A DNA stretch of 64,000 nucleotides from Kudoa neothunni (GCA_964304625.1 OZ199838.1:11944524-12008523), one strand, 5' to 3'. Shown: positions 5,754 through 43,379, counted from the first letter of the stretch. Numbers and translations: made by a program. Notes: a model not told the origin generated them from the sequence alone.

Positions 5754-6907
5754 TCACAATAGAGGGTATGCATAGTATTTTGATATATTTAGGTATCCAT
5801 TTTCATCTTTAAGTACACGAATGTAACCATCTTCTCCCCAGAGACCACCCCAACTATTCTTTATGCACCAAAACTTTTCGGATCCTTCTCTACCGAATCC
5901 AGTGACAAGAACTGCATGATTAGATAAAACAACTTTCCCTTTGTTCTCTTTATCATCGTATATTCCGCTGCAGTAAAACTGGAAAGATTGGCTCGAAGCA
6001 TCCAAACCAATCGCAATGGGTCCGATCCTCGCAACCGCTAGCGCAAGGCCATTTTCATCAGGCTGTTCTTTTATATCGATGCTACCCTTTAGAACGTAAG
6101 AGTTAATCCTAAACCCAGTGAAGCCATCGTGCAGACACGTCCCTGTGTCATCATTATTCTTTATTATTAGGCCGAATAATATAGCTAATTACCCTTTTTA
6201 GGTGTATAAGGGTACTCTTCCTCAGTTTGTAATCCATTATGCATTAAGTATTCGAAAGCCAAATGGGGTAAACCGCCTCCACATCCATTATTTTCGGACG
6301 AACAATCTACTAGTTGTTTCTCACTGAAGCTGACAAGCTTATTTGTAGTCCTCGCATGCAATGCCTCTACTGCACCAACTGCTGCAAACGCCCAACAACT
6401 TCCACAACTTCCTTGGTCCTTTATACATGTTACCACCTTTTCAACTCTCCAATCGATAGCCAAAATGTCTTGGGATGACATATCTGCAGATTTTTCCAAA
6501 TGCAGATCTTGCTTATTACGTTTCTCATCATAAAGAAACCGGGTTCCATGATCTAAATGGAATCTTTCAAGGGTAAGCCTCTGAAGGTATTCCTCACGAC
6601 TCTATACACAAATTATTCATCGAAAATTTAAAATTATGTATTTTTAGATTAAAATTTTGATGGATAATGTGACCCGTTAAATAATTAAAGATAATTATAA
6701 CTATTTATATTTGATTACCAAATGGGATAGAGAATTATGGCCACATGTAAAAGATGCAGTTTTTTTGGCGTTGAAATTTTCAATGAATGAATGATTTGCC
6801 GTAAAGTAACCTAATCGACGAGTTTCATCTTCTACGCCCTCAGTTACGATGTTATGGTGTGACTTATGGGACATCCAAAGTCTCCTCGAAACATCGTCAG
6901 ACGACAT
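5754..6907 (-). CDS. cathepsin L-like cysteine protease (C1A) with I29 propeptide, copy 1; exons 6907-6719, 6601-6193, 6142-5754; 328 aa
   Basis: QGSCGSCWAF, NHAVLVTG and KNSWG catalytic motifs; ERFNIN-like propeptide; two GT-AG introns (117 and 50 nt) give a continuous 987-nt ORF. Confidence 0.93.
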
Positions 6908-8004
6908 AATTATATTGTCAAGTCAAGATAGATATGGATACGCTGCGCCGAATATATAATGAGGAATTAAATAATTATCAGGTACTACCTTTTATTCTTT
7001 GAGATAAATATGAATTTTTTAATTGTGGAATGAAATAAAATTTTGTTGTATGTTCCTGATTATTTTTAGTAGAATATTTTATCACGAAATTACACTTTTT
7101 CGAGATAATACATAGAAAGTAAATTTGAAGATACAAATTTTAATTTGATTATGGATGGATTTTATCACGTATTGCTGTCGTGATTACCTTTAAATCAACA
7201 CCGACAAAGAAGTTTTATCATTTGCGCCATACAATGTCGGAGAAACCTATAACCCTATGAAACTTTATATTTACATTCTATGTTACATTTCTTACAACTG
7301 TCCAAATGGCGTATAAAATAAAAATTTGTCCTTCCCCAAACTTGTCGATATTCAAGCTATTCATACAATACAATTATATATTCATTATCCAAATGAGTCG
7401 TTATCAATATTATTTTCGGATAAAATGCACTCCTTGGTCATGACACCCTGAGTATTATTTTGTGACCGAAACCTAACGATTGATTGCCATTAAAATTTCA
7501 TTTAAATCATAATTTGCATAGTAATTAAATATTCTTTATAAAATATTGTCAGTTGCTTGATCAATTTTTGTTCTACTTAAGTATTCAAAATATTTAGGAT
7601 GTTTTAATTATGTAGTGGATTATATATTTAACGAAATATCGGTTAGGTTAATTCAGACCGTTAAGACAAAAGACGTATGAGTATAACTGATAATGTCTGT
7701 TTGGAAGAGTTAAAGTTTTATCAGAATTGTTAAATTTATCAAAAATTTACTGATTTTAGATGTATTTCAATCTTAATAGCATTGAGACACAGGGTTACAT
7801 AGTCTAATTAGAAACTACTTTCGACTATCTATCTTAAGTTAATACATAATAAAATAATATATAAGGCCTATAAATCTTAAATTCCGCCTATAACAAAGAT
7901 ATTGGGATAAGTTATTCTTGTTACATAATTTTAATTTGTCCTATAACTTCAATGATATATTCTGGTTATTCATTACAGAGAAGCCAAATTATCAGAAACT
8001 TATA

Positions 8005-8085
8005 TTAACTCTCGAAGGACCGACCTAAAAAAACTTAAGCGAGGAACCAACAACCAACTGGGGTCATGTTTGACCCCAGGACTTT
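8005..8085 (+). mobile_element. isolated piggyBac-like terminus
   Basis: TTAA followed by CTCTCGAAGGACC and a subterminal palindrome CTGGGGTCA-tgtt-TGACCCCAG. Confidence 0.4.
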
Positions 8086-8248
8086 TTCATTTTTTTAAAC
8101 AGCTATACTCTTTTAGTTCATCTAGTTGTTATACTTATTGTATGTATTTAATAAAAATTAGGTGATGGGATTTCTACCACTACTAAGTTACCATTAAATG
8201 CTTACATCGCCCCATAAACCATTATCCATGTTATTTGTATATTAATGG

Positions 8249-8950
8249 ACTAGCGCAAGAGCCCCGCTTTGCATGGGCTTCCTTGTCCGGCCAAGTAGAT
8301 TAAAGCCTTGAGTAGGCCAAGGTCATTTGAAGTTCAAAGTAAATTAAGAGTATTTAGATAAATAGTACAAAGATTACCCAATTAACGGATGATTTATTTA
8401 ATTATTTGGACGCATGGACCTTATTTAATATTTTTAAAAACGAATCAACACTACTGAGCGTTCAAAATTTCCTCTTTAGAGCTTCTAAAAGTCGATGTTC
8501 TCCTTATTGTTTGCAGTAATCTCTAAATCATACCATATGAATTTGACTAATCTTGTTAAACATCGACAAATGAATTTCGTATTAATGCTTGGCTACATAA
8601 CCTAATATTATCTTCCTTATTTGAACTATTTCAATTACTAAATTACTTTCCAGTGACGTTAAAGTAAAATTAACACTATGGTACGTTTAAGACTAACTTT
8701 TTAAAACTTAAACGAAATGATCTATATGTTTCATAAATCCTCAAATCATACCAATCATTACACGCGAAAATGTTTTTTGTCATTTTGCCGAATGCAAACC
8801 TTTTGTAATTTTTAACGTATTTTTTTGTATTAAAATAAAATTTGATCTTTCCATATGTATGCTCAAATGGAGCGATATATCTCTCTATTAAGAATTAAAA
8901 ATGCGTACATACACACACACACGGATATGGACTCTAACGTTAAAGTAAGT
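8249..8950 (-). mobile_element. non-autonomous Helitron-like element
   Basis: Minus strand ends in a GC hairpin (GCCCATGCAAAGCGGGGC) followed by CTAG|T at 8249-8253; (GT)n tract near the other end at about 8910-8925; that boundary is approximate. Confidence 0.45.
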
Positions 8951-10151
8951 TTATGCTGCTATAGAAAATTCCTATTAATAATCCTGTTGAATTAAAACTC
9001 TTCATTTAATATGAATTAATATAAAAATGTAGGAATATTGGAGTAGAAAACGATAAACATTCAAAAAATTTACATAAAGTATAAGCTTTTTTCGGATAAC
9101 ATCAAATACGGAGTGCAAATAAAAAATTGAACTTGAAAGGTTCAATAATTAGTACTTTACTTTGCGGTGAACGTATTGAACAACGAAAAAATAGTCAACG
9201 TGAAGTATTTAACTAATAGTCAATGGGAATTTCAAAAATATGATTAGAATGGTAAATTATTTATCAGACCGTATTTCATTTTTCTTTATCTCGAATAGTC
9301 TGACAAAAATTTTAAAAAAATGTAGTTAAAATTGCTTATTTATTGTTGTTATAAAATTCAAGCAAAAAAGTATTAGGCGGGTTAGGTGGAAAATTGATCG
9401 CAAACAATCAAATCATCTTTCGAACCATGTATTAACTAGGATTTTGGATTTGATTGCATAATATTGAGAATAAAATATTTTAAAACTTCTTAGTCAAAAA
9501 TATTATATATTAAAATAATATATTGTTTCCAATATAAATCAACATCACAAATTCTGTCTAATTTACAAGGCTGTACATACGGACAAACGCTGCAGTAAAA
9601 CTGCTTATTATCTCTATTTTAAATGTTATGTTGATGCTAGTATTGAATAGATTCTTATTTAACACTTAAAAGCTAACCTTGGGATCCGCGAACCAACTTA
9701 ATATTAATTTGTTGTAAAAATTGTTGTATTTTGTGTATTTTCTCTAGAATTACATCAATTTTTTTAAATATTACTACCAATAGACCAATTTAGTAAATTA
9801 GTTGAACTTGTATTGAAAAATACAAAAAATAATAAAAAGATAGAGCTTGGAGCGAAAGGTTAGCTTGAAGGATTAAAAAATGTTTTGAATTAATGACTCT
9901 TACTTCTCAAGTTTTGATTCAAATAACGTTAGATTCTATCAGCATACGATTCCTCCAAAATAATAGAGAATTATTAATCTCAATGATAAAATAAATGGAT
10001 TACTGAGGATTACATTATTATTAAATATTTATACTTTTTGCATACAAATAAAACTACATAAAACAATAAAAAGATAAAATTACTAAAAAAAATTGTTTGC
10101 CTAATTAAATCATAATATAGGTGATAAAATGGAAAATATGGCTATTTATGT

Positions 10152-11309
10152 TTATAATTTTGGATATGTGTAGTATGTGGATAAACCCATGTACCCATTT
10201 CCGTTTCTATAGACATTACAATAGCCCTTATCACCCCATAGAGATCCCCAGCTATTTTTTATTTTCCAATAGTCCTGATCGGAATTTTCCGTACCATATC
10301 CAACAAGAAGAACTGCATGATTAATTTGAAATTTTTTATCCCTATTTTCATGATTAAAGTATACTCCCTTGGAGTAAAAGGAGAATTGGCGACAAGTAGC
10401 ATCGATTCCAGTAGCGACAGGTCCTACATTTGCTATCACTTTCATCAAAGTGTCTTCATCGAATGGGCTTTCACAATGTTTGTTGTAGCATCTCAGTGAT
10501 TTGATTTTAACTCCACGTTTTCCATGGTACCTGCATTCACCTTTCTACCCATAATTAAATTAAATAGATAAAAAGATAATTCACCCTAGCTGTGTATGGA
10601 TAAGCTGATTCTGTTGTTACGGCATTTTTGGTTGCGTACTCGAAAGCCTTATGAGGTAAACCACCATCACATCCACACTTATCATCAGAGCAATCGAGTA
10701 GTTGTTGCACACTCAAGCTCTCAAGTTTTTGATGTGTGATAGCATATGCTGACTCCATCGCCCCAGCAGCTGCAAAGGCCCAACAACTTCCGCAAGCTCC
10801 TTGATTTTTGACCGCGGTCACCACATATTTTTCGCACCAATCAACTGCAGGGGGTATTCCTAATTTAACATATTTCGAAACTTTGATAGCATGTTTTTTC
10901 TTTTGTGGTATATATTGGGGCTCTCTTATGGTTGACCTTTGTAACTGTTGGAGTTTCCCACTTTCTGAATTCAGCCAATTAATGTATTCATCATGAACCT
11001 TTAAAAGTATTATTTAATCAATTAAGAAGTTTAAACCAGTTGTTATTCATACATAAAACAAAAATCGACAAAAAATTCACTAATGTTTTTTACCAACAAG
11101 TGGATCAAGAACAAACTTACCCAATGGGACAGTTGATTGTGAGCACAACTAAAAGTGATACCCCTGCTGGCGTTTACACTCTCAATGAACGAATGATTGT
11201 CTTTGAAAGTCTCCAAACGACGACTATCCTCTTCCGCATTACTGAATGTTACATTATATTGCATTTTATGTGTCAACCAAATTCTTTGAGCGACATCGTT
11301 GGTTGACAT
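10152..11309 (-). CDS. cathepsin L-like cysteine protease (C1A), copy 2; exons 11309-11121, 10998-10585, 10544-10152; 331 aa
   Basis: QGACGSCWAF, NHAVLLVG and KNSWG; ERFNIN-like propeptide; two GT-AG introns (122 and 40 nt) give a continuous 996-nt ORF. Confidence 0.93.
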
Positions 11310-11979
11310 GATTCAAAACAGTTTTCAGGGCAGATTAATACGAAATTCAAAATCTCGTTTACGGAGATAATCTTTTAAAAGGTTGTTATTACTTTTTAAT
11401 GATTTTAACGAACATTACTGGTTAAGTTAAAATTAGAGATGAAAAGTTCCATAGTAATTTGCAGGTTTGTATGCGCTATATTATATATTTTAAAACTTTA
11501 CAAATAGATTTGACGAAGATATTTTTAGGGCATCTCAACATTGTGAAATCTACCTACAACATAACTGGTTCATGATTACATTTAATTAGTCACAATAAAT
11601 GAATTATATTGTTAATTGGGGGAAATCTATACTAATTTTAGCCATTATAATTAATTATTCGTTAATCTCACACATTATCTATTGTTAAAATCATATATAT
11701 TGATAAGTGTAAAACCACTCTTTATAAAAATAAATTAAAAAAATCATGGAAAATTATTATTTACAAAAATATAATGAGACGAAATATACTTGAGATGATT
11801 CTGCTCCAATTCGATATTATAAAAGATCGATTTACCATAATATGGGTTTATCTGCTACTAAGAGCAAGATAAATTATAATTAGAACATACCTTGCAAAAT
11901 AAATTCTAATCAATTTGTTAACTATTCAATACGAATAAAATTTTTTATAGAAGTTATTGCCCAAAAATGATGATTGATC

Positions 11980-12510
11980 GGTAAAACTGCAGCAAAGTCG
12001 CTGTATGTCAAATCAATGACAATGGTCAAAAGCAACTCTGTTGATAATTTTATTTTTGTGCATTTATCTGTGTTGATGAAACAAGATTTTGCATCAAGAA
12101 TCCAATTAGTTATCAATATTAGTTACTTCACTTTCATATTGAACTAGTATTCTCTCATAATCATTTTTAAATGTAATAACACTCAGTCAAGTAAAGTGTC
12201 GCTTATGTAATTTTAAATTTGGCTGTGGCAACTTTAATTCAGATGCCTAATCACAATTTCTCCTTAACTATTAGCTATTATAAATTCTTTGTCTATGAGA
12301 GTTTCTCATTTTATGCAACCTTTAAATATTCAAATTTTGCAAATGCATAACGCTAATATCAAAAATAAATTATTGGATGGAATACAGGAAATCCCTCTAC
12401 AAATTATTAAACAAATATCACATTAATTTGATTTAACAAATGTAGGATTAATGTGAGAATTATTTAAAATGTTTAACTGGAAATTGCAACCACCATTCTA
12501 CATTTTAACA
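11980..12510. mobile_element. MITE family A, copy 1 (most decayed)
   Basis: Homologous along its length to 18279-18821 and 26375-26930; right end CCATTCTACATTTTAAC; left end GGTAAAACTGCAGCAAAG. Confidence 0.6.
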
Positions 12511-13099
12511 CATGAATGTTAAATATCGTTAGTTATTTATACGTATGCTGGCTAATACAGGCTAAAAATAACAACCCCCAAATATTTTGTTATTGCAATC
12601 TCAACGTACCCTTTAATCCATTAATTTATTGTTTTTTCATCTTAAATCCGTAAAAAATTTCTATTAATTTTTTTATTAATCTCTGTAAAAATTAGATTTA
12701 CGAAATTAAAAGGTAAAATAAAAATAGGATTTATGCATTATATTGTTAAACAAATAATTTACATTTTAACTGATTTTTTATAAATATGGATATTAAATTA
12801 TATTTATATACAAATAAAAAACATAATCAACCAAAAATCATGACGAATATGTATAATTATAAATAATTATTGAACGGATTTCTATTCGAAATTTCATTTT
12901 TTGAACATTAATCAATTTCCAATCCATCACTTTTACATTATTTAGGTTCACCTTCATATTATTTAATTTGATGTATAAATTCAAACCGACATTGTATTAT
13001 TATTTTTATACAGCGTAATTATAAAATACACCGTAAAAACCGATACCGGAATTTACGCCGCCTGAGGATTTGTTATTGTTGAAATTTTTGCAATATTAA

Positions 13100-15750
13100 T
13101 AAACATATGCGAATCCGTCAGGGTATATAAAGATTCAATTTTTTTGCAATTTTGCATTTCTCGTTCCAATCTCTCATCAAATCCTGAAAATATGAACTTT
13201 TCTTCCACTTTTGTCACTGTAACACGAGATCGTAAACATTCATAAAATTATTTGAATGATTGCAACATATGATGACGTGTCAACGAACATTAATTATTAA
13301 CAAGGGAATATCGGCCGGATTTATTATAGATTTACTAGATCGGTTGTGTATGCCGTTATGTTGATTCATTATAAAATCTTGGAAAATTTCACTACAGTAG
13401 TATTCCAGGCTTCCCACATCGGTTGATCGATTAGCAGTATGTCTCTAATTAGGTTGGAAAATTCGACGAAGCTCTGATCGTTGCCAAAACCGGTGATTAT
13501 TTGTCACATGTCTCTTTCATTTTCAAATTTTATGGTTCTGATACGACGCATCGTCGCAGAATCTTCTATTGCAAAGCTTGTAAGTTGGTTTACCGCAATC
13601 ATTAATTTGGCTTTATTGTTAAACGTTATTAATTGATTACTATACAGTAGCCTGAAGGTTATAACGTATCCACCTTAAATTTTTAATAAAAATTTTATTA
13701 ATTCATATATGTACATACCATTCAATATCTTTATAGTGGGAATTGAAAAGTGTCCCCTTCGACTCGCTAACTATAGCCAACAATTTATCAATGAAAGGAG
13801 CTAATCTTGGATCGCAATCCTGGCTAATTTGGTTTTTATGGTTTTTGTTAACCACGAAAAGATCTCCAGGCACGCAATAATTGAAATGACCAAAAAAGTT
13901 TTGGATTGCAGACATTAGAATGGGTTTGCCATTCCTACCCTTAGGACCGTACAAAAACAAAGGTGTTTGTGTTTGCGAGGCTTGCGAAATTTTCTCTAGT
14001 AAATAATTGAGAAAAATATTTATAGGGTAATTGTTTAAAATGGTTTTCAGAAACACAGTCCAATTAGAATATGTGGTTGTTGTGTAATTAAATTGGGATC
14101 ATTTAACGGGAATATCCTCTTCTCTTTGGGTCTGTAATCTCCTCTATGTTTATTATATATATAATTGGCGAGATGTATATTATTTAAATAACAATCTGTT
14201 GCAATATTGGATTTTAAATAGAATTTTTCCAGAATGATTGACTCCTGTACCATGCCAATTTTTGGAATTTTTATTTGTTTTATTGCTAATTCAAGTAGGG
14301 AATCAAATTCGTAATCATATTTTTTAGAACAATTGGTAATCGCTTTCCTAATTCGCTGAGGAAGGTGTGTATTTTGTTCTTTAACCAATTTCCTTTGGAC
14401 CAATGACCACTGATTATTTGGTGTTGAATAATAAAACCATGGTTTAGGTCACCAATGTAAACATAATCTTGAATTTTTTCGGAAAACAGAACCGGATTCA
14501 AGCATTTGTGATAGATTAGATTTGGTATTAAATCTCACATGGATTCAATGGAAATGTTTTATCCTTTTACAATGATTTTTTGGGAAATGACGTCTAATGG
14601 GCTGGATGTACTCACTAGATCAAAGATTTTATGTGTGTTATTTGAAAAATTCTTATTTGCATGCTATTAAAAGGCAAGAATGTAATTGGTTATTATTATC
14701 AGGATTCTCCTAACTTCCAAATTGATAATCGTATTTGAATTGATTTTTGTTGAATAGAATTCATTGTAATTTTCCAAATTTCGGATTATGTGTCCTTCTT
14801 CAGTGTTATAATGATCACGATAAAGTACATTTATATGTGGAGGTTGTTTTCAGAGGTGACCGGTGACGTGTACAATTGGTCATTTTGGTTTAACGCCGTA
14901 ATATCTGGATCGATCCTTTTAACGTCTTGGACATTTGTGAGTTTAACTCATCCTTGTACATGAGCCACTTCAAACCCTGAAAGTCCTTGCGAAAAAATTG
15001 GCAAAATTTCTTGAATTTGGAGTCGTGAAACCTTATTACACACGATGAAGGAGTAATTACTCCATATAGATAATTGAGTTTATGTGTACGATTGTTCTTT
15101 TTGCAGAAACCGTTGAATATGTAGAAGTAACAATTATTTCTCCAGCAGAAATTGACGGAACGATGAATATTTTCACCACCGTAAAACATTGATTATTTCT
15201 TTTATAAATCCATTAATAACGATTTAAGGAATTTTAGCCCAGGTAGTTGAGAGATCACACGGAAATGTGGAGAGGTTTAATAAATGATCCGTACTAGAAA
15301 TTTCAGGTTAGTTTGAAATTTTCCGGTTTAAATTTATTTAAGTTTGAAAACTTTTCTTAATTGATCAAATTTTGAGGCATTTACAAAAATCACTATTTGA
15401 CCCCTATCTGTATGCCCTCGAACTAATAAAATGTAAGGAGTAATATCAAGGATCGTTAACCAAGGAATGTGACGTTAGCTAGTAAAAGAATAATTGAATT
15501 TGAGGGGATTATTCGTTTATTTTTTCAACTTGATGTCTTTTAAGTCATCAATGTTTTTTAAATCGAGGTTTTGTAGAATAGAATTTCTGTCCGTATCGAA
15601 GTAGAGAATAATGGGTTTGTCTTCATGACGTATTCGAATACGTTTGATTTTTTTAATTTTTCCACAAGAAAACCATAAGTTCTGGTTGATAGCGTAAACT
15701 ATCCCCTCAGTTTGCGATACTTTTTGTTTCAATATTGTAAATGGGTGCAT
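13100..15750 (-). pseudogene. AEP primase (PrimPol/NCLDV-herpes type)-Zn finger-D5-like SF3 helicase fusion, copy 1, decayed; 45-nt intron at 13718-13674
   Basis: ILYFDTD (AEP motif I), YSLH (motif II), FCKKNNRTHKLNYLY...HD (Zn finger), LYGPKGRNGKP (Walker A), LAIVSE (Walker B), KILNG|GYVITFRLLY, LMIAVN (motif C), DSATMRRIRTIKF (Arg finger); multiple frameshifts; 3' boundary approximate. Confidence 0.8.
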
Positions 15751-16049
15751 TATTGCAATAATTTGGTAAAGAGGTCTACTATTGGATGACGGATAACGAA
15801 AAAAACACGATTCAGTAATGTCACTGGCGATTCTAAATTAGTGTCACGTCATCAACTCCCCGAAGTAACCGTAGTGTTAATACTAATGTTATTATATGAT
15901 ACAGAACTTCGAAATCACATTGCACGCGGTATCTATCGTTCGGATCAAATTGGGGTTTTTTGAATTATTTAGAACTTTCAATTTTAAAGATGTACTTTAA
16001 GAACATAAAGAATGATATTTATGAGATTCTTGTCAATTGTCACTGGGTG

Positions 16050-16335
16050 ATTCAAGTTTAATTAACTACATAATGACTCAGGAACGAGCGGCCAAACCAA
16101 TAGAGAGATCGCTTCGAATATTAAAATGGACTAAAATACGACAAGGAAAATAATTAAAGCTTATGAGACAACAGAAAGATTTTGTCCTTCAACAAGAGGT
16201 GGTGATAGGCAATCAATTTTGTTGAACAGTCACAAGCAATTCATTATGGAATTAATCAACGGCGATTGCACAATATCGCTTAAAGTTACACTGGATAAAT
16301 AAATAGATAACTTTAATATAAAAGCATCAAAACTT
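16050..16335 (+). pseudogene. IS630/Tc1-mariner-type transposase N-terminal (HTH) fragment
   Basis: Translates as TTRKIIKAYETTERFCPSTRGGDRQSILLNSHKQFIMELINGDCTISLK. Confidence 0.55.
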
Positions 16336-16489
16336 GCGTTAATGATGTGATTTTAAATCTGATTTAACAAATTTCAGTTTGCATCATTATTGAGAACGGT
16401 CTTATATTGTTTGGTGAATCAATATTCATTAAATCGTATTTTCTGGAATGTTTATACGACGAAATAGTTGAATTGACTTAAACTTTTTT

Positions 16490-17166
16490 TATTATTACTT
16501 TTAAAATATGCCGATTGAATATGGCCATGTTTTATGCTGTGGTTACATACAACATCCTTAAATTTGCATTTATTAGGTGAATGTCTTTTTTTTCACAGGA
16601 GTAGAAAACTCCTTTTATCATTTGAATTTTGTTTATTGGTTCCTCTTGAACAAAACTAGATAGTTTTGCTCCGTTTTCAGCCACTTCTCGATCAGAGAGA
16701 AATGAAACCATTGCTCCTCATATTGGATTGGTAGATTTAACACATCATTTCGTATTTTACCAGAGTGCAAACCATTTATTTGACGATCCCTCAGGTTCTC
16801 GTTTAAGTTTATACCAAACCGACATGACATATGATATTACCAGCTTTTTTAATTCTCTGATGTATTCAGCAATGGTTTCTTATCGGTGTTAATTTCGCCA
16901 GTTGAAAATTCCTCTCATAGCAATTACGTTTATAGGAGATGAAAGACATTTTACAAGAGATTTCTCCAGATTTTTCAAATTAACGCCCATAAATGTTAAT
17001 GGGAAAGCTTAGCATTGATCTCCTTGTACTCAGTAGTGTTCATGCTCATTAATATTAGAGATTTCTTCTTACCGTCATCTAATATTGAATTAAGCAAAAA
17101 GTATTCGCGGATTTGTTCGACAAAACAATTAATATCTTCATTCTTATCGTATTTAGATATTTTCAT
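16490..17166 (-). pseudogene. Ty3/Gypsy LTR retrotransposon gag remnant
   Basis: MKISKYDKNEDINCFVEQIREYFLLNSI..., ETIAEYIRELKKL, CRFGINLNENLRDRQINGL, and a degenerate Zn knuckle CKFKDVVCNHSIKHGHIQSA. Confidence 0.7.
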
Positions 17167-17544
17167 TTTTAACGAGTCTTCGCCGCTAGTTGTTAATGCC
17201 GTGCGTTACGATCATAGGAAGGGTTCATTGTGCTTATAAAACATACCAGTGACAAAGAACAGTACTCTAACTAGACCGTTTGTTTATATAGATAGGGAGA
17301 CATCATGTAACACATCTAAAATGACGTCACGTCTATGAACTAACATATTTACGATGTACTAAATTACAAATACATATGAAAATTAATAATAATGTTAACT
17401 AACACATACTAACGTTACTCCGCGAAAAAATAGAAACCAATGTATTAACGAATAATGTAACTGAATTTGAAGTGATGGTGACCGTATTAGTAAATAGGAG
17501 TTAACCCGGGCGTATTAGTTAGAATAACGATAACCAATTAATAA

Positions 17545-18185
17545 TTAAGGAAATCAGCACGCCTAGCTGTATGGATGCCATAAGGTTGGTCCATAGTAAA
17601 CAACTTCCTTTGGTGTCATAACAAATGGTAACTTTTAAATAAAGCACTACCAGTTATGGACAATGTATCCCTCCATAAAATCACTGAACGCTTTTTTTGT
17701 TTACAAGGTCAAAACCCGGACGCAACTTGTTAGGTTGTGAAGTTCGGGCTGGTTAGGCCGTCTCCAGTTACGCTTTAGGCACCGCAACGCCATATTAAGG
17801 CGACTTACGCTTATGCGGTAGAGTGGGACCATAACCCATTAAACATCTTCGTTTCGGAGCAAACACCACCCAAAAAATACCCCGGACTAACCCTGAATTA
17901 GTCCGGGAAAATCGTCTGTATGCGGGCGTCAGCTTTACGGAAACCCCCTACTGGGTTGGATTTCGTCCCTGTAAACCGGCGTTTATGAGCGCCCAAGTTC
18001 TACTATTCCGCCAGGTTTCCCTCCCAAATGCAAGCAAGACTACGATAAATCGTATAATCCTTGCGATTACTACATCCTTCCTACTTAATTTCGGATTAGG
18101 AGTACAGGAACGCCCCGACTAGGCTTCGAACTCGCAATCTCACGGTATGCGATCCCGACCTAAAACCACGATGCCACATTGTCCA
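17545..18185 (-). mobile_element. tRNA-derived SINE-like element
   Basis: GC-richer island; minus-strand head has A box TGGCATCGTGGT and B box GAGTTCGAAGCC in tRNA spacing, without a perfect cloverleaf; internal palindrome CCCGGACTAA-ccctgaa-TTAGTCCGGG; tail boundary approximate. Confidence 0.6.
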
Positions 18186-18278
18186 GGCTACCGAGATATG
18201 GGGGATCAATAGCTGAATATTATCGTATTTCATATTCTTATCTCCTTATTTGTCTTTTTGAAATCCACTGGAAAATAT

Positions 18279-18821
18279 GGTTGAAATGTAGAATAATGGT
18301 CGTAATCTAAATCAGCGACACCAGAAAACAACGAACCTGTTGATTATTGTAATTTTTGTATTTATCATTGTTTCATCACCCGTAAGTTATTTTAGGCACT
18401 GTATTTGTTATCAATAATAGTTGTTGTAAAATATTATTTAATAACTGCTTGCCTCTCGCGGTTATTTCCAAAAGCAATATCATTTATCGATCGAGTAAAG
18501 ATTGCTTTATTTATCCTAAAATTTGAGTGTAACAACTATGATTTTTTATCAAACGTCATATTTCATCCTTAGCAATTGCCTACTATTAATTAAATGCCTA
18601 TAAGAATAAGAAATTCATATTTTCTGCCAGCAATAAATGTTAAATTGTATCAAATGCATAACGTTAATATCAAAAATTATTTATTATAATTAATCCACTA
18701 ATTCCTATGATTAAATATTCAACAAATTTCATACTAATTTGATTTAAAAAATTCAGTATTAATGTCCGAACTAATTACAATATTTAATCCGTACATGCGG
18801 CCATTATTCTACATTTTAACC
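18279..18821. mobile_element. MITE family A, copy 2 (GG-ended 24-bp TIRs, possibly Merlin-type)
   Basis: Left GGTTGAAATGTAGAATAATGGTCG versus reverse complement of right GGTTAAAATGTAGAATAATGGCCG (22/24); no ORF; TSD not recognisable. Confidence 0.75.
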
Positions 18822-21800
18822 GACCTGCCTCATCATAGATTTTGAACATGATTTTTAACTATACTCTACGAATTACGAACCTCCAAATAATGTTTTTTTA
18901 CCTATATTAGGTTTGGTTTTTAAATTCTGGCATGAAACAAAACTCTCCTGAAAAACGAATAAAACCATTTTCATAGTTCCAAATATCACTAACCATCAAA
19001 TCCTCCTGCCCCCCTTATGATTAACTCACATAGATCAAATTTGTCATATACATTGGGTGTCTATTTTCAATCAATGTAAAAAACGGAATAAGCGGAAATA
19101 ATACAAATAACCAACATTACATGAATATTTAGAAAATTAAATGTACAATTCTATAATTAAGAAACCAAATAATAAATACAACTTTTACGCGTATTAAAAA
19201 AACCAAAAAATAAAACTTCACAACAAAATAATACCCAGAGAGTCTAATTCGATAAACGAATCGACATATTTTGCTCTTTTGAAAATCCTTTTTAAAGCTC
19301 TTCCATCTCTCTTCTTAGTTTCCGTCGAATTATGATTATTTTACGGAGATAAGCAATGAATTCATATTTTAATTGCTTATTCACCGTAATATCGTTATCT
19401 TTAATGATTCTAGGATCATAACTCTCCACGAATTCTCTGAAACATACAAAGTCATCTTCACTACCCTCACACAGATGTTCATCCAAGAAATTCTGCAATC
19501 CCCCAGTATTCTCTTCTCTGAATACACATTCCACCGAAAAAGAAGAATCCTTTAAATTAATTAAAGAGACATCTTTGATGATATTAACGAATTCTGACAG
19601 ACACGAGTCAGTGGACAAGTCTCTTACGAGAGAAACCATGTCCCGCTCTAACTCACCCTGAAATTCATTCTCAAATTTTATTACTCTCACCCTACGACTA
19701 ATAGCAGCGTCTCCTCCAATAAAACAGGTATTTTGTTTGTAGCTACTATTATCTTTGATTTATTGACAAAAGTATCCGATTACTAATTCATTCAAAAACA
19801 ATCTTCTGTACGATATACCATCATTCACTATGTTAAAATAAATAAACAAATTAAAAATTATCGAAAACTAACCAATTAAACTTTTTATGAGGGATGTGTT
19901 GCATAAACAACCTCGGTTTTCTCCCACCGTTGTCAATTTTGTTGTTGAGAAGGGAATAAATCTGAGGTCATTGTCCCTCGCAACGTCACCGTTTCCATTC
20001 TTGGATATTACAAGGAATGCACCCGCAACGTCATAACGATACGGTTCAAACAGATTTTTAAGAATAAACAAAAGTGTGCTTTTCCCATTGCGTCCTTTTG
20101 GCCCATTAAAGAACAGAATTGTTTGAGACAGTTGTGATTGGAATAATGCTTCCGTTAGATAATTTAGAAGGATATTTTTGTCCTCTTCTCCAAGCAGGGA
20201 ATCCAAAAATTCTTTAATTTGTTTGGATGAGATATTGGGTACATAATTGAAATTAAAAAATTTCAATGAAAAATCCCCCTATTCTTAGAGCGTGTTTTGA
20301 AGTCTTCCAATGAAATCAAACAATTTTTAAAATGGATGTGGTTGTAAAAACTAGAAATCGCGTCGACCGATTTTATCATAATTTTTCCGTTATTAATCCC
20401 CAGTTTACGGAGTCTCACTTTGTAAGCTTTAGAAGATTTTCCATTTCTTTTATCACAATGCAGATATTCGAAATAAGGGAAACCCCCGGATAATTCATTA
20501 AAACATTCTCAGTTACGCTTACCAGAATACTTCCATTTAGATAAATGTATTTATATATGGAGCTATGTAACAATTTTTTAGGGGTGAATCCCATACATTT
20601 ATCTCATCAAAAGCGGACCATTCGCCCCATTCCAATACATACATCAACTACTGCTGGTAATCCGAGCTGAGTATTACATCAACCCAGTTGAAGTAGGTTA
20701 AATTATCAAATAAGTTTTTCGGATTTTCAAGGGTAGCCTGCGGAAAGAATATATTTAATTCCTTTAGGATAACGGAATAAGAATTCGCCGACATGGCTTC
20801 CGATGGATCCTGGAGATCTTTTTAAGAATATTAATACACCAAATTTACACGAGAATAAAAGGTTACTTGAGTTTAGATTGAAGGAAAGGTTAACTATAAC
20901 GTTTAGATTATAATTCACACCTCATAGATAATGGGTTGGCCTGAGTTTTTGGGTATTTTATGTGATTTAGGAGATATTTTATGGGTATAATGAGTTGGGT
21001 CCACCAGTTTTAGGTTGTCCTGATTAGTCAGAGTTGCCTCATATTGATTTTGTGATAATTCCATGCTTCCCACTCCAACATCTGCATTCCTCACCAGTTG
21101 AAGTAATTGTTTTGTTAAAAAGTCGTTGTATACAACTTATTCCAATGGATATATTTGTTTGATATTGGTTTGTGTTATGAGCCCACAAGAGGAGTCATGA
21201 CATGAAATCATGACTCTTCTTGGGGTGAGGGTACAATATAGGTTGTTGGAATTGTGTTTCAGTTGGGCTTCTTTGCATATACCCTCAGAGTCAAGAAAGT
21301 AGCAAGTTCTTTTGTATTATAAGGAGAGGAAATCGTCTATATTTTGCGGACCATAAATTTCGGGAATCATTCCTTTCATAATCTCCTCTATGAACGAGTT
21401 AGGGGAAATTTTTTGGGGAGCTAATGATTGGTTTGAGGGTTGGGGAGAGGTGGAACCAATAGGCGGGTTGTTGTTTGGATTAACGGATACTTCATTATGG
21501 TGGATCGATAAATCTAAGAATGAAGAAAGATTGGCCGAAATTTCTGCCATGAATATGGTTGTTGGTTTGTCTTTATAAAATGTCAAAGTTTTTTTTATGA
21601 AGTCATCACTGGCATCCACTTGAGCGGGCATAATTGGCAGAAGTTTACGATGTTCCTTTGCATTAGATGCATATACATTTCTGAAAAGCTCCCCTCCTAT
21701 CACTGTAAACATAGGAATCGACATCTCTTATTTGGAAAAATGAGTTCTGATTGAGGAAATTTTTGAGACTGGTAACACCAGGGAATACTAACAATCCGTT

Positions 21801-23106
21801 ATCGTTTTTAGTGTACATTCGTACCATAAGATAGGCGGAGTGTTTCATTGAAGAGTTGTGGAAGTCGTGGGATGTAATCAAATAGAACTCAATTTGAAAT
21901 ATTGATTCAAAAATATTATTAATCATTTCTTGGATTGTTCTGATAGTCTCATTGCCCATTTCAATGGGGGATTGAGGAATGATGTCTTCTGGGTTCATTT
22001 TTATGTCCACATCGAAGTATGGGATAATGTGAGAGTCTCCTGGTGTATATTTAAATATGTTATGCGATTTTATTTTCTGGACAACGTTGTCGTAGGATGG
22101 GGTGGGTTTATGACGCCCGTAGTGATTCAAGACGTATACAATCCTACCTTTGTTCAAAGCACGTAGCTTAGACGAACTCATTTCAATGATTGTGAGTATT
22201 AGAGCTTCTTAAACACGCGGATGTAATGATTAAATTTGATGCCTGATGAATTAAGCACAAAAGTGGCGATAAAATGTTATGCGTGATAATTAGAGTAAGA
22301 TAGGGTGTGGCATATAATGTTTCTAAAAGTCGAACGTGATATTCTTTGTATCATAAACACAGAATCGATCAAGGCATGCGTGAGATAAATTGAGTGTTAT
22401 AGTTCTAATTAAGTTAGAAAAAATTACTTCGATATATTTTCCATCCTAACAAGATAATTACTCTACAATTTTATGAAATTTTAAATAAGTTTAATATTAT
22501 AATAAATTAAAAGATGTATAAAACATATTATTGTGTTCTTGTCTGTAAAAACGTTTACTTTCTATAGCTAAGGCGACCTTTAATGTTAAAATTCGAATTC
22601 CTTAATTTTAGAGCTATTAAAATTTGTAACCGTGATGAAAAAGGGATCAATCCTAATTCATCTCACGCTCATTAGTTAATATTACACACTTCACGTTACA
22701 CGCGTAGAAAGTCTAATTTGAAAAATATTTTATGCAGTACGTATTATATGGTCAAACAAATGTTTCATAAATAAACATCGTAGGATTTGGTTTCAAATTT
22801 TAAAGAAACGGTAATTCGTTTTAGGCCTTTTTAAGGGATTATATTTCTTTTAAAGTCATATGCATGTGTACGAAAGATATTTAATGAGAATGCACTAATT
22901 ATAATGCTGATTGAAGAGGGTTTAATGGTAGGTGTAATTTTTAAAATATAATGTTTGTAACGACATTTCGGTGGGAGGTATGCTATCGGAAAAATTTTAA
23001 AAACCAAACTTTATTAAGTATAAACAAAATATATAAAAATCAGGTAGATTTGAATTTGGTAAAATGTAGTAAAAACTCATGCATCGAAAATATGATGAGG
23101 CACGTC
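18822..23106 (-). mobile_element. putative TIR-bounded element carrying only a primase-helicase gene
   Basis: GACCTGCCTCATCATA at 18822 and its inverted copy TATGATGAGGCACGTC at 23091-23106 (15/16); about 44/63 ungapped identity over the first 63 nt, plus shared GTTTGGTTTTTAAA further in. Confidence 0.6.
19292..22181 (-). pseudogene. AEP primase-Zn finger-D5-like SF3 helicase fusion, copy 2, frameshifted; 45-nt intron at 19872-19828
   Basis: IPYFDVD (motif I), KHSAY (motif II, His to Tyr), VDSYVYS...FRNVYASNAK (motif III), CKEAQLKHNSNNLY...ISCHDSSC (UL52/PrimPol Zn finger), FNGPKGRNGKST (Walker A), KLTTVGE, IIVATNKIP, DAAISRRVRVIKF. Confidence 0.88.
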
Positions 23107-23610
23107 TAATTTTTAAATATTAGACTTGCCTCATCTGTATATCGTGTAATTTTTATGTAAAATGCATCAATGTAAGTTATACCTAATTCCTTTGGAATTA
23201 ATATATCAATGTATAAATTTAATATATTAGGTATACCGAATTTCAATATTGAACCTTAACCTTAGATATATTTTTTCCGTTTTTGGAATAAAAATTAATT
23301 TTTACTTTATTTAAGAAAACTTTACATTTTAAGCATTCATTCAGAAGTTAAAAAATTTATATTTATTAAGGATGAACAAATAAAATAATTATTAAAGATT
23401 GGTTTTTAGGCTTTGAGGATTAACATAGGGTCTAATATAACAAATTTTGATAGATGTATTATTAATTGAGCCTGCAATTTTCCACGTTTATTTTTGGAAG
23501 AATCGAAGTTTTAAATCGAAAATTGCATGTTCTATTTATTAATAATAGATTCCATTTTATTTAATTCCGATATTTTCATAATTATTACAAAGGAGTATCT
23601 TATACATAAT

Positions 23611-25229: not shown

Positions 25230-25960
25230 CTGTTTTTTGAATAGAAACTCTGCAACGCATTCCTACTGATGGACTCTAATGTTGGGTCCTTTTGTGCCTA
25301 ACCATTTTTTTAGTTTCATCCAAAAGTTTTCAACCGTTTGAGTACGAATCAACGAATTTTGAGGATCCACTAAGTGGTAATCGTGTTTGACCACCGAATG
25401 ATTCATACCCAAACGGTATAAATTGTTGTAGGATAGCCATCCGTCTGTGACAATGATTGTGCCTGTTATTATTCGTCTTTTGATGATTGCAAGAAGAGTA
25501 TCGGCGGCCCTGGTCGAGTCGGTGAACTTTATGAAAAAATCGAATTTTTGTTGGCCATTATTATTTCGGCAAATACCACCAAGAACACATTGTTCAGGTA
25601 GTGGACGCCCTCGGTTGTTTTTCCTTCATACTAACAACGTTTCGGCGATTTCAACAACTTGATTTGAACCACCGATTTTAATAGTGACGTTTCTTTCGTA
25701 ATATTGGATACATGATTTGCGAAACAGTCTACTCCAATCCACAACAATATGAAAAGAATAATGAAATTCTTTTTTTATCAATCCAATGGAGTAATTATGA
25801 CTCCACAATCGCAATAATAGAAATATTTTGAAGAGTCATTTTGGATTCGAAAAAACGGTCCATTTCTGGTGGATATTTTTGTTGACATCCACCATCTCTA
25901 GGTGTAATTATCAATTATATAATGACTGGCACGGATCATATAATGGTCACTATTCGGACA
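25230..25960 (-). pseudogene. Merlin / IS1595 (ISXO2-like) DDE transposase pseudogene
   Basis: KIGGSNQVVEIAET...RKNNRGR...VLGGI...GTIIVTDGWLSYNNL...HSVVKH...VDP...TQTVENFWMKLK, with stops. Confidence 0.85.
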
Positions 25961-26374: not shown

Positions 26375-26930
26375 GGTAAAATTGCGGAATAGTGGCCGTA
26401 ATCCAAATCAACGACAACGGACAAAAACGAACCTGTTGAATATTTTATTATTGAGTATTTATCAATGTCGCATCTCCAATAGGGCAACATTGACAATTGC
26501 TATTTCTCATCACAATAATAGTTGGTGTAATCTATTATGTATTGAACTCCTAGCTCCTCGCGATTATTTCAACAGGATGTACCGCCAATTAAGCCGGTTC
26601 GAATAAAGCAAGCTTTATGTATTCTAAAATTGAAGTCGGAAAACTCTGATTTTGATGGATTATCACAATATAACCTTAGCAATTCTCTACTGTATCAATC
26701 CATTTTCTATAAGAATAAGAATTTCATATTTTATATAAGCACTAACTAACTAATTGTCGTGAGCGTATAACGTTAACATCATAAATAATTTATTGAGTGA
26801 AATTCGGACATTATTTCCATTAAATGGTCTAACAATATCATACTAATCTGATTTAAAAAATTCGTGTTTAATCCCCAAACTAATTATAACCTTTATTCGG
26901 CAAATATGGCCAATATTCTACGTTTTAACG
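26375..26930. mobile_element. MITE family A, copy 3
   Basis: Left GGTAAAATTGCGGAATAGTGGCCG, right TGGCCAATATTCTACGTTTTAACG; internal blocks shared with copy 2 (ACGAACCTGTTGA, CCTTAGCAATT, CTATAAGAATAAGAA). Confidence 0.7.
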
Positions 26931-28010
26931 AATAAAATATTTTAGAACATTGTTAACATGAAATCATTAAAAACCGTATTTATCGGTGTAAAAATTAGAA
27001 ATCGGAAATTCATAAATCAGCTTAATTAGTTGGGCGGAGGATCATAGCACGGAAAATATTGGAATTTAGATTTATTATTTTTACATTGCCCCTTATATTT
27101 TTTTTGTTGAAAAAATAAATGAAAAACGTGCGCGATTCATGATGAATTTTTGGAGTCACAGCAAATCATTACGTTTCAGATTGTGACATCCAAAATTATA
27201 TTGGTCTTAAATAATCAATTAAATTTTATAAACATCGCCTTCCAAACCTTTTTAACACATCCAAACAAAGTATTTTGGGATTTACTCAAATTTGAATACG
27301 GTAGCGAATGTAAACGGGTAGACTTTTTCTGCGGCTCAATCTTTAAAAATTATTACACCTTCAATTAAATATGAGATTTTGTTAAAATGGTATCTGAAGT
27401 TAGACCAACCATATTAATTTACATTTTTGTCAGTAAACACATCATGTTATAATAGGTAACTACAAAGCAGAGACTATTACACGGTAAATTTAAATCCTAA
27501 CCTGCGTATACGCATGCGCATCGTTACTTTGTAAAGCCGAGCCAATTTTATTCACAAACTGTACATGAAGTTAATTTTTTAAAATATATTATATCGAATT
27601 ATTTACCATTCAAATAGCCACTTTCGAGTTATATATTGATGGTTCAAACTTGGAATTAATCGGACACTTGATTTTTATCAATGTTACATGGCTATAATTT
27701 TTATTGATAGACTTATCTCGAATTAATTGTAATTAGAGAATAATTTCCTATTTATAAAATATATTAATACATATATCTCCTTATTAAACAATTTCCTAAA
27801 TAATAAACGCTAAAAGTTAATATGGTACGAAACTACGTTAGGTAATTATTCGAATTAGTTTCTGGTTGGATTGAGCTAAATGATATCAATTTCGCTTGAA
27901 TAAATGCGTATAAATTAATTGTATTTATTAATTTACTATAAATCAACTCTGCCGTTTATTTTAGATAATAAAGGGTTTAATCGTGATACTACACACGATA
28001 AGAAGATGCG

Positions 28011-30806
28011 ATGTTGGGGCTAGCAATTGCAATCCTATTCCCTTGTATAGGTATATCTGATTGCGATAAATTTGTTTATTCTTACAAATACAGCCAGTCT
28101 AAATATGGAAGGAAAATACGAAATGTGTAGATCGTGCCTAAATTCCAATAATAAAGCATGGTGCATAGACGGAGTATATGCAAAATAATATGGCGCGATT
28201 GAATGTATTGTTTATAGAATCGTCGAGAGCAATCTCAATGTGTATCAAAGCTCAATGAAGATTGCCAAGATTATTTAGAAAATCATGTAAAAATTTTGCG
28301 TTCAATAATTCGAATAAATGCAACAATCTTAGTACTTGGAGGACGTTGAAATCGATGAAAACGATCTTCGGGATCCACCCATATATCTTTCAAAGATGGA
28401 TAAAAGTTATTAATAAAGAAACTTTGATGAGTGATTTTACGTTATTCAGTAAATCAAAACCAATTCCAAACAATGATAAATATCAATCCTACATCAAAGA
28501 GAAGCACCCAATTCTATTTTTTGGTAGATAGAGCTATAATGAATACACGACAATGGGAAGTGCTACTAACCGATTTGAATATATACGGTAGAAAAAATGA
28601 GATTGAATTTAACAGTATGATAAGCATTCTAATTACATTTAGTGACTTCTGCAGATTTTCAGCACCATGACCAAATAGGGATAGGAATCTATCATAATAT
28701 GAATAAGTTAGTGTAAGACATGTTTCTCTCTGATCAAATTTTAGTTATTATTTTTTTGAGAACGTGGTTCCAATAACTCATGATTACCTCAATTTGGTAT
28801 GTAGTAATGCTTTAGTGATATTATTTATTGCCCAAAGAAACGGCAGATCGATTCATTCTCATTCAGTTCGACGTTGAATAATAACGAAAAGTTATATTCC
28901 ACAATAGATGCTATTATACATGTGGTACAGAGTAGACAAGTGACATTTATGGCAAAAACACCTTCTTCATTAATATTCTATGTTATTTATAGGTAGGATG
29001 GAATAAAGCACAAGATGTAGTAAAAATATTGTATATTGTTCCGAATTCAACCTTAGATTCGGTGAGCATTAATTAACTATTACATGTATTAATTAGATAT
29101 AACTTAAGGAATCAATTCACCCACTAAAATACGATCAATTTCACCATCTTATACACCAAAAATCTATAATCTATCATGTAACATAATTTTTGCTTAAATT
29201 AATGAAATACTAGTCAATACTGAATTAAATGTAGTTACAATCGATCCTTTATGAGAACATGATCAATTTTGTCGCTACAAGGTCAGAGAATTCTGATACC
29301 AATCATGTTATGGTCTGTTTGTGTAATATTAATCGTTATTAATTGTCCACAGAAATTAATTCGTATTACCCACTATTTAAAAACAAGATCTCTCTTATAT
29401 TCTGACTGTACTCGCACGAAATACATGCGAACATGCTTCTTTTTATTTGAACTTAGAAGAGTATGTTTTCTGGTTATCAATATAGAAAAATCTAGTTTAT
29501 GTTAGGATATGCACTCCTTCATGAAATATCTACCGCCTCAAAATAATGAATATGTTGATTTTTCCATAAGAAAAGATTGTGGGTATTTGAATTCCTACCA
29601 TCCAGCACTACGTGAATATTTATGTTGATATTTTTAGTCGTGAACATCGCGATTATGGTTGTGATATAAAAACGAATGTACGTATTTACTTAAATGTTAT
29701 CATTAAAAAATGCATACCTCCTGAAAATTACAAAGAAAACACTATGTACTTACATTTTCGATTGCTAATATATTGCGTTTAGCTATTATTTGCAGATTAC
29801 CGATAGCAAACCTATTGCAATAGTTGTCGATAGCAATAAATGTCTGTGCCAATGTGAATTAAAAAGCTCTATTACTTATGTGACGATTCGTTTGTTGGCC
29901 TTATTCAATTTAATTACAACGGTAGATGGAGGATTCGGAATATTGTTCCTTTAAAGGGGACCGTGTATGTGGCCATTGCGGATGTTCACAGAATTTGTAA
30001 ATATTGTCTACTTTCTTTTTTAATAACGTATTTAGTTTAGGAAATGATTGTTCCTTGATTAGAAGTATTGACTCGAGCACTGAAAGTAACCATCTAGAAT
30101 GTTGCATTGAATAAGTATACAAAGGTGGTAAATTGGAGAATGATGATAAATGCGCGAGGAAATCGTCTATTGAAGGACATGCTGTAAATTTCATCGATTG
30201 TGAATCTAGATTTTGGAAAGATCATTGTTTATGCTCTTCGAGCAACACAGCATGTTGTTTATTTGTTACGTCTATAAATAATAATTTAGCTTTGTAATAA
30301 TAAGGGATATTTGAAATTTGGAAAGTGTTTTTGTTATTATGGATATAGAGGAGAATACTGTGAACATACGGTATATATCCATGTTATCTAGCATCAAATT
30401 TTATAGATCGACAACATAAACAACGAATTCATCGAAGCTTGTCTTCACAGGAAACTCAAATCTACAATAAATAAATTGGAGGAATTGAAACTGCCAGATA
30501 ATTATTGTGATTTGATCCAAATCGCTTACAATGGGAGTAATAAGATGAATTTTCTGTTTTATTGTTTCACTGATAAACACACGGTGTATGGCTACAATGT
30601 ATCAAGCAATGGTTCACATTACAATGTTTTGGTTGGACAGGAATATGGTGATCTTTTTTTATTAGGATAGAATATATCTTTCCTTTTCTTTAGATTTGCC
30701 TGAATCTATAAACAAATCGTTTGCTTTACGCGTTAGTGTGCTAGGATCAATTTTGTTTACTTCATTAATGACACTGATGATTTACGTTTGGAGAAAAATT
30801 CATTAG
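28011..30806 (+). CDS. highly diverged integrin beta-like membrane protein, multi-exon with tiny introns; middle exons not resolved, could be a pseudogene
   Basis: Signal-like MLGLAIAILFPCI; PSI-like CRSCLNSNNKAWC; FYFLVD at the vWA beta strand; CLCQCE; I-EGF repeats CSFKGDRVCGHCGC and CNNKGYLKFGKCFCYYGYRGEYCE; TM VSVLGSILFTSLMTLMIYVW then RKIH-stop. Confidence 0.6.
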
Positions 30807-35061: not shown

Positions 35062-35134
35062 AGCCCTCGGCGGGACTCGAACCCACAATCCCAAGATCCG
35101 AAGTCTTATGCCTTAGCCATTAGGCCACGAGAGC
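35062..35134 (-). tRNA. tRNA-Arg (anticodon TCG)
   Basis: 73-nt cloverleaf GCTCTCGTGGCCTAATGGCTAAGGCATAAGACTTCGGATCTTGGGATTGTGGGTTCGAGTCCCGCCGAGGGCT; all stems pair. Confidence 0.92.
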
Positions 35135-42127: not shown

Positions 42128-42499
42128 TTAAGATTAAATCAGACGATGAGTTTTTTTTTGCTTATAAATAATAATTAAATTTTATTTAATTTCTTTGTTT
42201 CGAAAAAAATCGTCTAGGGCCTTCCAAAACGATGTAGAAACTGTAGAGGTTGCGACACTATGTATACCTCTACAAGAAAACCTACAAGAAAGAGAAAGGA
42301 AAATAGCCAATTAATTTTTTCATTAAATAATGATGAAAACATAGTTTATACGTATGTAGAAAGTAATTGAAATACAATAAATGGTTTTCATTAAATACGA
42401 CAGATGTAAAACAAAAAAACCTTTTTTACCGGAAATAATGAGGGAACAAAACAAAAATTATCTACCAAGAATATCTTAAAGATCTTTTACTATTGGTCT

Positions 42500-43379
42500 G
42501 TAAATAATACTATTGAATCAATTTCATCAATGGTTCGTGTCTCCAAAAAATCGATTATAAATTGGTTTATTAAAATTCGAACCATTTGTACAAAGCATTT
42601 CCTAAATCGACAAAAATTCGGCGGTGAAGGATACGTTATTGAAATTGATGAAAGTCTATTACATGGCTAAAGAAAAAATAACAGGGGCCGTTACTTGAAT
42701 GGAGATTCTTGGAAACAATCTTCTACAAAGGAAATTTTTATCCTTGAGAATTAAGTGACAGTAAAAAGAAAAAAAATTTAATTAATTTGTTATGTCCTCT
42801 AGATGGATGGAAGTGGAAGTGAGTATTGCCTGATTGTGGAGAATTGTCCGACGAATATATGTGTATATGTTATTTAACTATACGATGGTAAATTTTATAA
42901 ATTAGCTCTATGTTCGAATTCTGAAAAATATGGGAATAGGGTGGACGGTCTCTGGGTTTTTGGTCTTTGCTTGTGCTCAGTTGATCCTGATGGGAAAAGG
43001 GCTCTAAAAGAGGTAAGGTATTTCAGTGTTCAAAGAAGAAATCATGAAACTCTAATACCAATAATTGAGAACGAGGTTTTTAAAGGGTCAACTATTTACA
43101 GTGACGAATAGTATGCTTACAATAAACTATCAGAACTAGGCTACAGTCACATTCGAATCAATCATTCTCAAAGTTGTTGTATTAATGAAGCACATTCGAA
43201 TACTATCGAACCTTGTTGGGGTCGGCTCAAACTTAAGATCCTTAAAATTAAGAGGTGTGAGTCAACTAAATTTCAATAGTTACCTGCATGAAGAATGGTT
43301 CCGATCTATTATGGGTGGGAAACTCAATTTATTTAACAACTATTTGAATATTATTAATAAATATTATCCAACTGAATAA
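42500..43379 (+). pseudogene. Merlin / IS1595-like transposase pseudogene with two putative introns
   Basis: KFGGEGYVIEIDES, RKNNRGR, WVFG, TLIPIIENEVFKGSTIYSDE*YAY, HIRINHS, HSNTIEPCW; in-frame stops. Confidence 0.85.

Follow-up and report, generated by a model that had tools for sequence, protein, structure and literature searches.

A same-position, intron-like insert in two decayed viral-type primase-helicase genes in the genome of Kudoa neothunni

Introduction

Why do two dead genes for viral-type helicases, both in one stretch of an animal-like genome, carry a 45-nucleotide (nt) insert at the same codon, and what kind of element did these genes come from? The question is raised by a 64,000-nt stretch of the Kudoa neothunni genome (GCA_964304625.1 OZ199838.1:11944524-12008523; hereafter, the window). 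The original prediction, made from the sequence alone, interpreted the inserts as spliceosomal introns of an ancestral gene that was transcribed in the host nucleus. Here we compare the two genes with each other and with intact homologs; the inserts are very probably spliceosomal introns, judging by their sequence features, and one of the genes is enclosed by long inverted repeats. The genes and their inserts are as follows:

13330-15700, minus strand: copy 1, pseudogene comprising a decayed primase, a Cys/His-rich segment and a D5/superfamily 3 (SF3) helicase; ends approximate, primase part weakly aligned
13718-13674, minus strand: intron-like segment of copy 1, 45 nt, GT..AG, phase 1, GC 11%, one in-frame stop
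19295-22181, minus strand: copy 2, pseudogene of about 2.9 kb with the same three parts
19872-19828, minus strand: intron-like segment of copy 2, 45 nt, GT..AG, phase 1, GC 16%, one in-frame stop; same codon as in copy 1

The shared insert

The coordinates, AT-richness, phase and single stop codon of each insert bear out the original prediction, and both donors have the form GTnnGT. The GC content is 11-16% in the inserts versus 34-36% in the flanking exons; the copy 1 insert is the lowest-GC 45-nt stretch of its gene (7 of 2377 windows of this size, all overlapping the insert), and that of copy 2 is one of the two lowest in its own. GT..AG ends occur at a frequency of about 0.002 in random 45-nt windows of the same strand. 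An unbiased scan for AT-rich GT..AG segments of 38-65 nt found 5 in copy 1 and 4 in copy 2; wherever two of these candidates lie at homologous offsets, they map to the 45-nt insert site, in agreement with the predicted shared position. The same scan revealed no second intron common to both copies, and there was no signal of intron origin by tandem duplication (803/2000 and 1094/2000 shuffles were equally good). The statement that removal of the inserts restores the motif KxLxGxD turned out to be inexact: in copy 1, the Asp is replaced by Tyr, and in copy 2, the Gly is replaced by Val.

The predicted similarity in size to host introns also holds. Among 12 host introns picked by eye in the NUBP-like, cathepsin and RICTOR genes of the window (21, 40, 40, 40, 41, 47, 52, 54, 57, 57, 63 and 117 nt; one of the 12 is backed by homology), 10 span 40-63 nt. 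The 21-nt GT..AG intron of the NUBP-like gene (55268-55248, minus strand) is doubtful. The host introns of the window do not fit the myxobolid medians of 22-27 nt (PMC13644364). Three RNA runs labeled with this species name contained no reads on an 18-kb stretch that includes the host cathepsin genes and are uninformative on splicing; one further run gave 17 partial reads only.

A 15-residue coding insertion at this site was looked for in intact homologs with a phmmer scan of 1.84 billion representatives, using the copy 2 read-through as the query. The scan produced 9 matches, of which 5 are D5-type primase-helicases with 27-37% identity to the query; none of these 5 contains extra residues at the insert site. 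The other 4 matches are a 77-aa fragment without a Pfam match and two leucine-rich repeat proteins and one peptidase S74 protein, the latter three discarded as spurious. Walker A and the donor are separated by about 72 codons in both copies compared to 67-70 in the 5 homologs, which leaves no room for 15 further residues. Against the profile of the 5 homologs, copy 2 with an X at the junction scores 48.7 bits, with the alignment continuing into the R-x-L-F motif, versus 45.4 bits for the read-through.

These data bear on the possibility that the 45 nt encoded a fast-evolving 15-residue loop that acquired stops only after the death of the genes. The length is divisible by three, stops occur elsewhere in both genes, and copy 1 scores well when read through; such a loop is nevertheless highly unlikely given the low GC content relative to the exons, the presence of GT..AG ends in each copy, at a chance frequency of about 0.002 apiece, with GTnnGT donors, and the absence of the insert from 5 of the 5 homologs. 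Furthermore, only 11 of the 41 interior bases are identical between the inserts, where composition predicts 16.5, a chance-level similarity to be set against 40% protein identity outside.

Divergence between the copies

The copies reside on the same strand about 6.15 kb apart and are collinear at offsets of 6154-6197 nt. A comparison of the dN/dS type, which had been proposed as a check, came out in favor of functional divergence: over 286 aligned codon pairs, including a marginal 32-codon block of the archaeo-eukaryotic primase (AEP) region (score 49 vs a null maximum of 46), amino acid identity is 40%, and the proportions of synonymous (pS) and nonsynonymous (pN) differences are 0.85, that is, saturation, and 0.39, respectively (bootstrap interval of pS-pN, 0.34-0.55). 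Identity between the copies is 37% at third and 64% at second codon positions, and 8 of 27 fourfold sites agree. The helicase blocks alone (200 codons) give the same outcome, with pS of 0.87 and pN of 0.38. Thus, these substitution patterns show that the genes diverged under purifying selection on their proteins.

The conservation of the ends, length and phase of the insert, along with its free interior, is most simply explained by a functional spliceosomal intron that was gained before the copies split. Because the ends outlasted the saturation of silent sites, selection on splicing and, hence, transcription in the host nucleus would be implied. The segment accordingly has what would be expected of a U2 spliceosomal intron, with GT..AG ends at a site that is uninterrupted in intact homologs, a host-like size and composition, and an unconstrained interior. 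The original prediction of nuclear transcription and retained splice sites in a long-resident element is therefore supported in part, insofar as the intron predates the split and its ends outlast silent-site saturation; residence in the present host may be younger than the intron.

Primase and helicase regions

The helicase region in these genes is readily recognizable, with Walker A, Walker B and the downstream arginine motif of SF3. The TIGR01613 model matched four helicase fragments in register (E-values 2.7e-7, 4.4e-6, 4.4e-4 and 5.6e-3, all below the curated cut-off), our own profile matched at 1.1e-22, and the helicase pieces also matched PHROG primase families, below the curated cut-offs. 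The N-terminal 172 codons of copy 2 are open; elsewhere, each gene contains several stops and frameshifts, and both genes are dead. One frameshift in copy 1, a few codons upstream of the donor, places the KILN stretch out of frame with the upstream helicase open reading frame (ORF). When the N-terminal ORF of copy 2 was used as the query of the Atlas search, it grouped with clusters of the AEP_C962R family (PF23162; Atlas score 0.97). Both copies have a DxD motif, in a weak alignment, and the Cys/His-rich middle segment is common to both (E 3e-8), whereas no Pfam match to the PriCT2 and D5_N middle domains was obtained on the broken frames. Taken together, these comparisons suggest that both copies were long primase-plus-helicase genes with a C962R-like N-terminus, the primase half being a lead.

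Contigs from a public run differ from the window by 1 letter and 3 gaps over 8849-17748 and are identical to it, without gaps, over 18648-23000. Because contigs from a public sample match both copies, the gene breaks are not errors peculiar to the assembly, with the reservation that the sample may be the assembly's own source. The same contigs and the location of the copies between intron-bearing host genes make bacterial contamination unlikely, as originally proposed.

Inverted repeats around copy 2

The original prediction overlooked both the primase half and a pair of inverted repeats around copy 2, features that suggest a mobile element. The repeats and the adjoining features are:

18822-19165, plus strand: inverted repeat downstream of the copy 2 gene, about 340 bp; identity to the other arm is 68% over the first 239 aligned nt and falls to about 60% deeper inside
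22762-23106, minus strand: inverted repeat upstream of the copy 2 gene, about 340 bp
23038-23188, no strand: imperfect palindrome; a third instance of the 13-nt terminal motif, starting at 23123, faces the upstream arm head-to-head across a 16-nt AT spacer
18279-18821, no strand: repeat resembling a miniature inverted-repeat transposable element (MITE), about 545 bp with terminal inverted repeats of 24 nt, directly adjoining the downstream arm

The inverted repeats score 124, compared to a maximum of 69 in shuffled sequences (0/200 as high) and of 63 in 634 control windows; their inner part alone scores 83 versus 57. Copy 2 is the only gene between them (18822-23106), and there is no room inside for genes encoding a capsid, ATPase or integrase. 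The palindrome folds with a z-score of -5.4, for a region that was picked after being seen, and on the side of the third motif, likeness to the arms is lost past about 70 nt.

The MITE-like repeat is probably an independent passenger. Related copies occupy 11980-12509 and 26375-26929; the three are 530-555 bp long and 65-70% alike, with terminal repeats that start with GG, and many contigs pile on the copy at 18279-18821. Remnants of IS1595/Merlin-type transposases are found at 25266-25835 and about 42400-43400; to name these as the mover of the MITE is a guess.

The close spacing of the copies could have arisen in the host if a single viral primase-helicase was captured and turned into a host gene, acquired the intron and was tandemly duplicated, with the duplicates diverging under selection and both being lost later. 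The shared strand and collinearity of the copies, the tandem arrangement of the neighboring host cathepsin genes, and the presence of a related MITE downstream of both copies would agree with such a domestication. We nevertheless consider it unlikely because copy 2 is bracketed by long inverted repeats, apart from the MITE, the two copies have nothing in common in their flanks, and both copies are dead. In addition, the MITE copies are closer to each other than the saturated silent sites of the genes, which is at odds with one duplication of the entire unit.

Surrounding sequence and host genes

Pfam searches (32 ORFs, and 18 frames over three flanking stretches, 9.7 kb in total) yielded no match to a capsid protein, packaging ATPase, integrase or tyrosine recombinase, with the caveat that decayed genes may escape Pfam; no cluster of hallmark genes of nucleocytoplasmic large DNA viruses (NCLDV) was seen in these ORFs and frames either. 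The only Pfam matches in the flanking frames were to host EGF/integrin-like domains.

Accordingly, it is distinctly unlikely that the copies are dispersed remnants of a large DNA virus that had integrated, whether NCLDV-like or another with a nuclear phase, whose paralogous primase-helicases already contained the intron: the Pfam-scanned flanks contain no other viral gene, and host genes lie close on both sides. In favor of such an origin, the N-terminus groups with clusters of mostly Nucleocytoviricota membership (with taxa taken from few members), introns have been reported in decaying endogenous nucleocytoviruses, pandoraviruses and some chloroviruses (PMC12768974) as well as in 61 of 506 punuivirus genes (bioRxiv 10.64898/2026.10.09.758095), and repeat-flanked accessory D5-like helicases are found in entomopoxvirus termini (PMC11296320).

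Several other features of the window were noted. Upstream of copy 1, there is a decayed retrotransposon gag-like remnant (16500-17240, minus strand) with a zinc-knuckle-like stretch, recognized by eye and without a Pfam match. A high-copy, GC-richer repeat (17692-18190) with a sharp left boundary at 17692 has no ORF family or Rfam match and is possibly a short interspersed nuclear element or a long terminal repeat. Tandem cathepsin L-like genes (5757-6922 and 10155-11312, minus strand) have intron positions in common and match named animal proteins with 33-51% identity; the first shows an apparent damaged acceptor or frameshift near 6150-6190, and a second high-copy repeat region (7836-9003) lies between the two. 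A multi-exon host gene with integrin-beta-type EGF repeats (about 27900-30700, plus strand; weak matches) supports an animal-like host. The host would be a fast-evolving animal parasite and, as a guess, a myxozoan; its absence from four other runs that carry the same label would fit a parasite. Relics of piggyBac-type transposases are located at 32091-33919 (plus strand), 38132-39551, 39889-41743 and 52739-52972 (all minus strand); Pfam confirms piggyBac at 32459-33379 only (PF13843), the other relics having been identified by eye. A tRNA gene (35062-35134, minus strand; RF00005) is the only Rfam match in the window.

Discussion

Several known systems resemble these genes in part. In group 2 Maverick-Polintons of animals, an AEP-SF3 fusion is often found in place of the protein-primed DNA polymerase pPolB (bioRxiv 10.64898/2026.06.19.733378). 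Maverick-Polintons of this group and Polinton-like viruses (PLVs) (same preprint; PMC11296320) have a primase-helicase fusion next to inverted repeats, as is proposed for the copy 2 element, and are likewise integrated in an animal-like genome. Unlike these, however, the unit described here is 4.3 kb long with a single gene, and no capsid, ATPase, protease, integrase or recombinase was found; it also contains a spliceosomal-type intron, whereas the word "intron" is absent from the main text of that preprint. The copy 2 element would work like a Maverick-Polinton replication end-module but falls outside the Maverick-Polinton/PLV assemblage: long terminal inverted repeats are present (in copy 2 only), and no capsid, ATPase or integrase was found.

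African swine fever virus (ASFV) C962R and poxvirus D5 (PMC10516667) resemble these genes in layout, the putative order here being primase, middle region, D5_N-like stretch, SF3 helicase and tail; the size is similar, with 962 residues in C962R compared to about 950 codons here, and the N-terminus groups with the AEP_C962R clusters. In contrast to C962R and D5, with which no PDB or Pfam sequence match was obtained, the genes in the window have a Cys/His-rich middle segment, no detectable PriCT2 and an intron, and both are broken.

Introns of the spliceosomal type are known from viral genes, in mirusviruses, decaying endogenous nucleocytoviruses, pandoraviruses and chloroviruses (PMC12768974). 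In endogenous giant viruses and mirusviruses (PMC12768974; for punuivirus, bioRxiv 10.64898/2026.10.09.758095), GT-AG introns of host size, as in the present case, have been taken as a sign of nuclear transcription. These viruses, however, have large genomes and infect protists and algae, whereas the present case is that of a single replication gene in an animal-like host, whose one intron is conserved across paralogs that are 40% identical. The terminal D5-like helicases of entomopoxviruses (PMC11296320) are likewise lone, repeat-flanked and proposed to be mobile; they reside in the genome of a cytoplasmic virus, beside T5orf172 nucleases, and no such nuclease was found here.

The explanation that we consider probable is that the two copies are decayed members of a small family of nuclear primase-helicase elements, Polinton-like or NCLDV-derived, which were integrated, mobile and bounded by inverted repeats, with an ancestral intron gained once. 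From the inserts, the selection pattern, the decay and the repeats, we infer that the host would have transcribed the gene of such an element in its nucleus and removed the intron as it does its own 40-60-nt introns, and that replication of the element from its inverted-repeat ends would have been the task of the primase-polymerase and SF3 helicase. Because the element encodes no integration enzyme, one would have to be supplied from elsewhere, by a larger Polinton-like parent or another element. The lineages would then have diverged to 40% protein identity while functional, with the splice sites kept, before these two copies decayed. Gain of the intron may have preceded the integration of these copies and taken place in a nuclear-replicating virus or element.

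Several observations weigh against this explanation. With regard to the intron, copy 1 alone scores higher when read through (23.8 bits) than with the intron removed (19.5 bits), because the last codons of the insert, at its 3' end, resemble the arginine motif; and the end of the copy 2 exon is more similar to the pre-donor stretch of copy 1 than to the pre-acceptor stretch (11 vs 7 of 18 nt). With regard to the primase, the assignment comes from one language-model (Atlas) search with a recognition value of 2337 at a threshold of 2300, sequence searches of Pfam and PDB for the domain gave no match, and a single-sequence structure model of the N-terminal ORF, at a predicted local distance difference test (pLDDT) score of 38, gives it no confirmation. 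With regard to mobility, inverted repeats were not detected around copy 1 (34 of 100 shuffles score as well), no target-site duplication is seen at copy 2, where one end abuts the MITE and the other the palindrome, and the 64-kb window contains no third helicase copy. Finally, no intact close relative was retrieved by word-index protein searches, searches of viral and metagenome contigs, or the phmmer scan.

A more specific and tentative interpretation, less probable than the general one, is that copy 2 represents an undescribed class of minimal eukaryotic mobile replicons of about 4 kb with long inverted repeats and a hairpin-like end, whose only gene encodes a primase-helicase and contains an intron; without capsid or integrase, the element would have been nuclear in an animal parasite. 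Such a replicon would be a linear-plasmid- or transpoviron-like relative of Polinton-like viruses, diversified to silent-site saturation with host-type splicing retained. In the literature searched, outside subscription journals and supplements, no description was found of a primase-helicase element in an animal that consists of one intron-bearing gene between inverted repeats. Introns in endogenous viral genes are already known; it is the minimal, one-gene architecture with inverted repeats for which this search found no precedent.

The survival of intron ends between viral-type paralogs at 40% identity would mean that splicing was selected while the protein still worked. A conserved intron of this kind separates gain in a living nuclear element from the intron-like decay of a dead insertion, two situations that are usually hard to distinguish. 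Should more copies bounded by inverted repeats come to light, together they would establish a minimal primase-helicase element of an animal lineage, one that has no relative in the searched databases.

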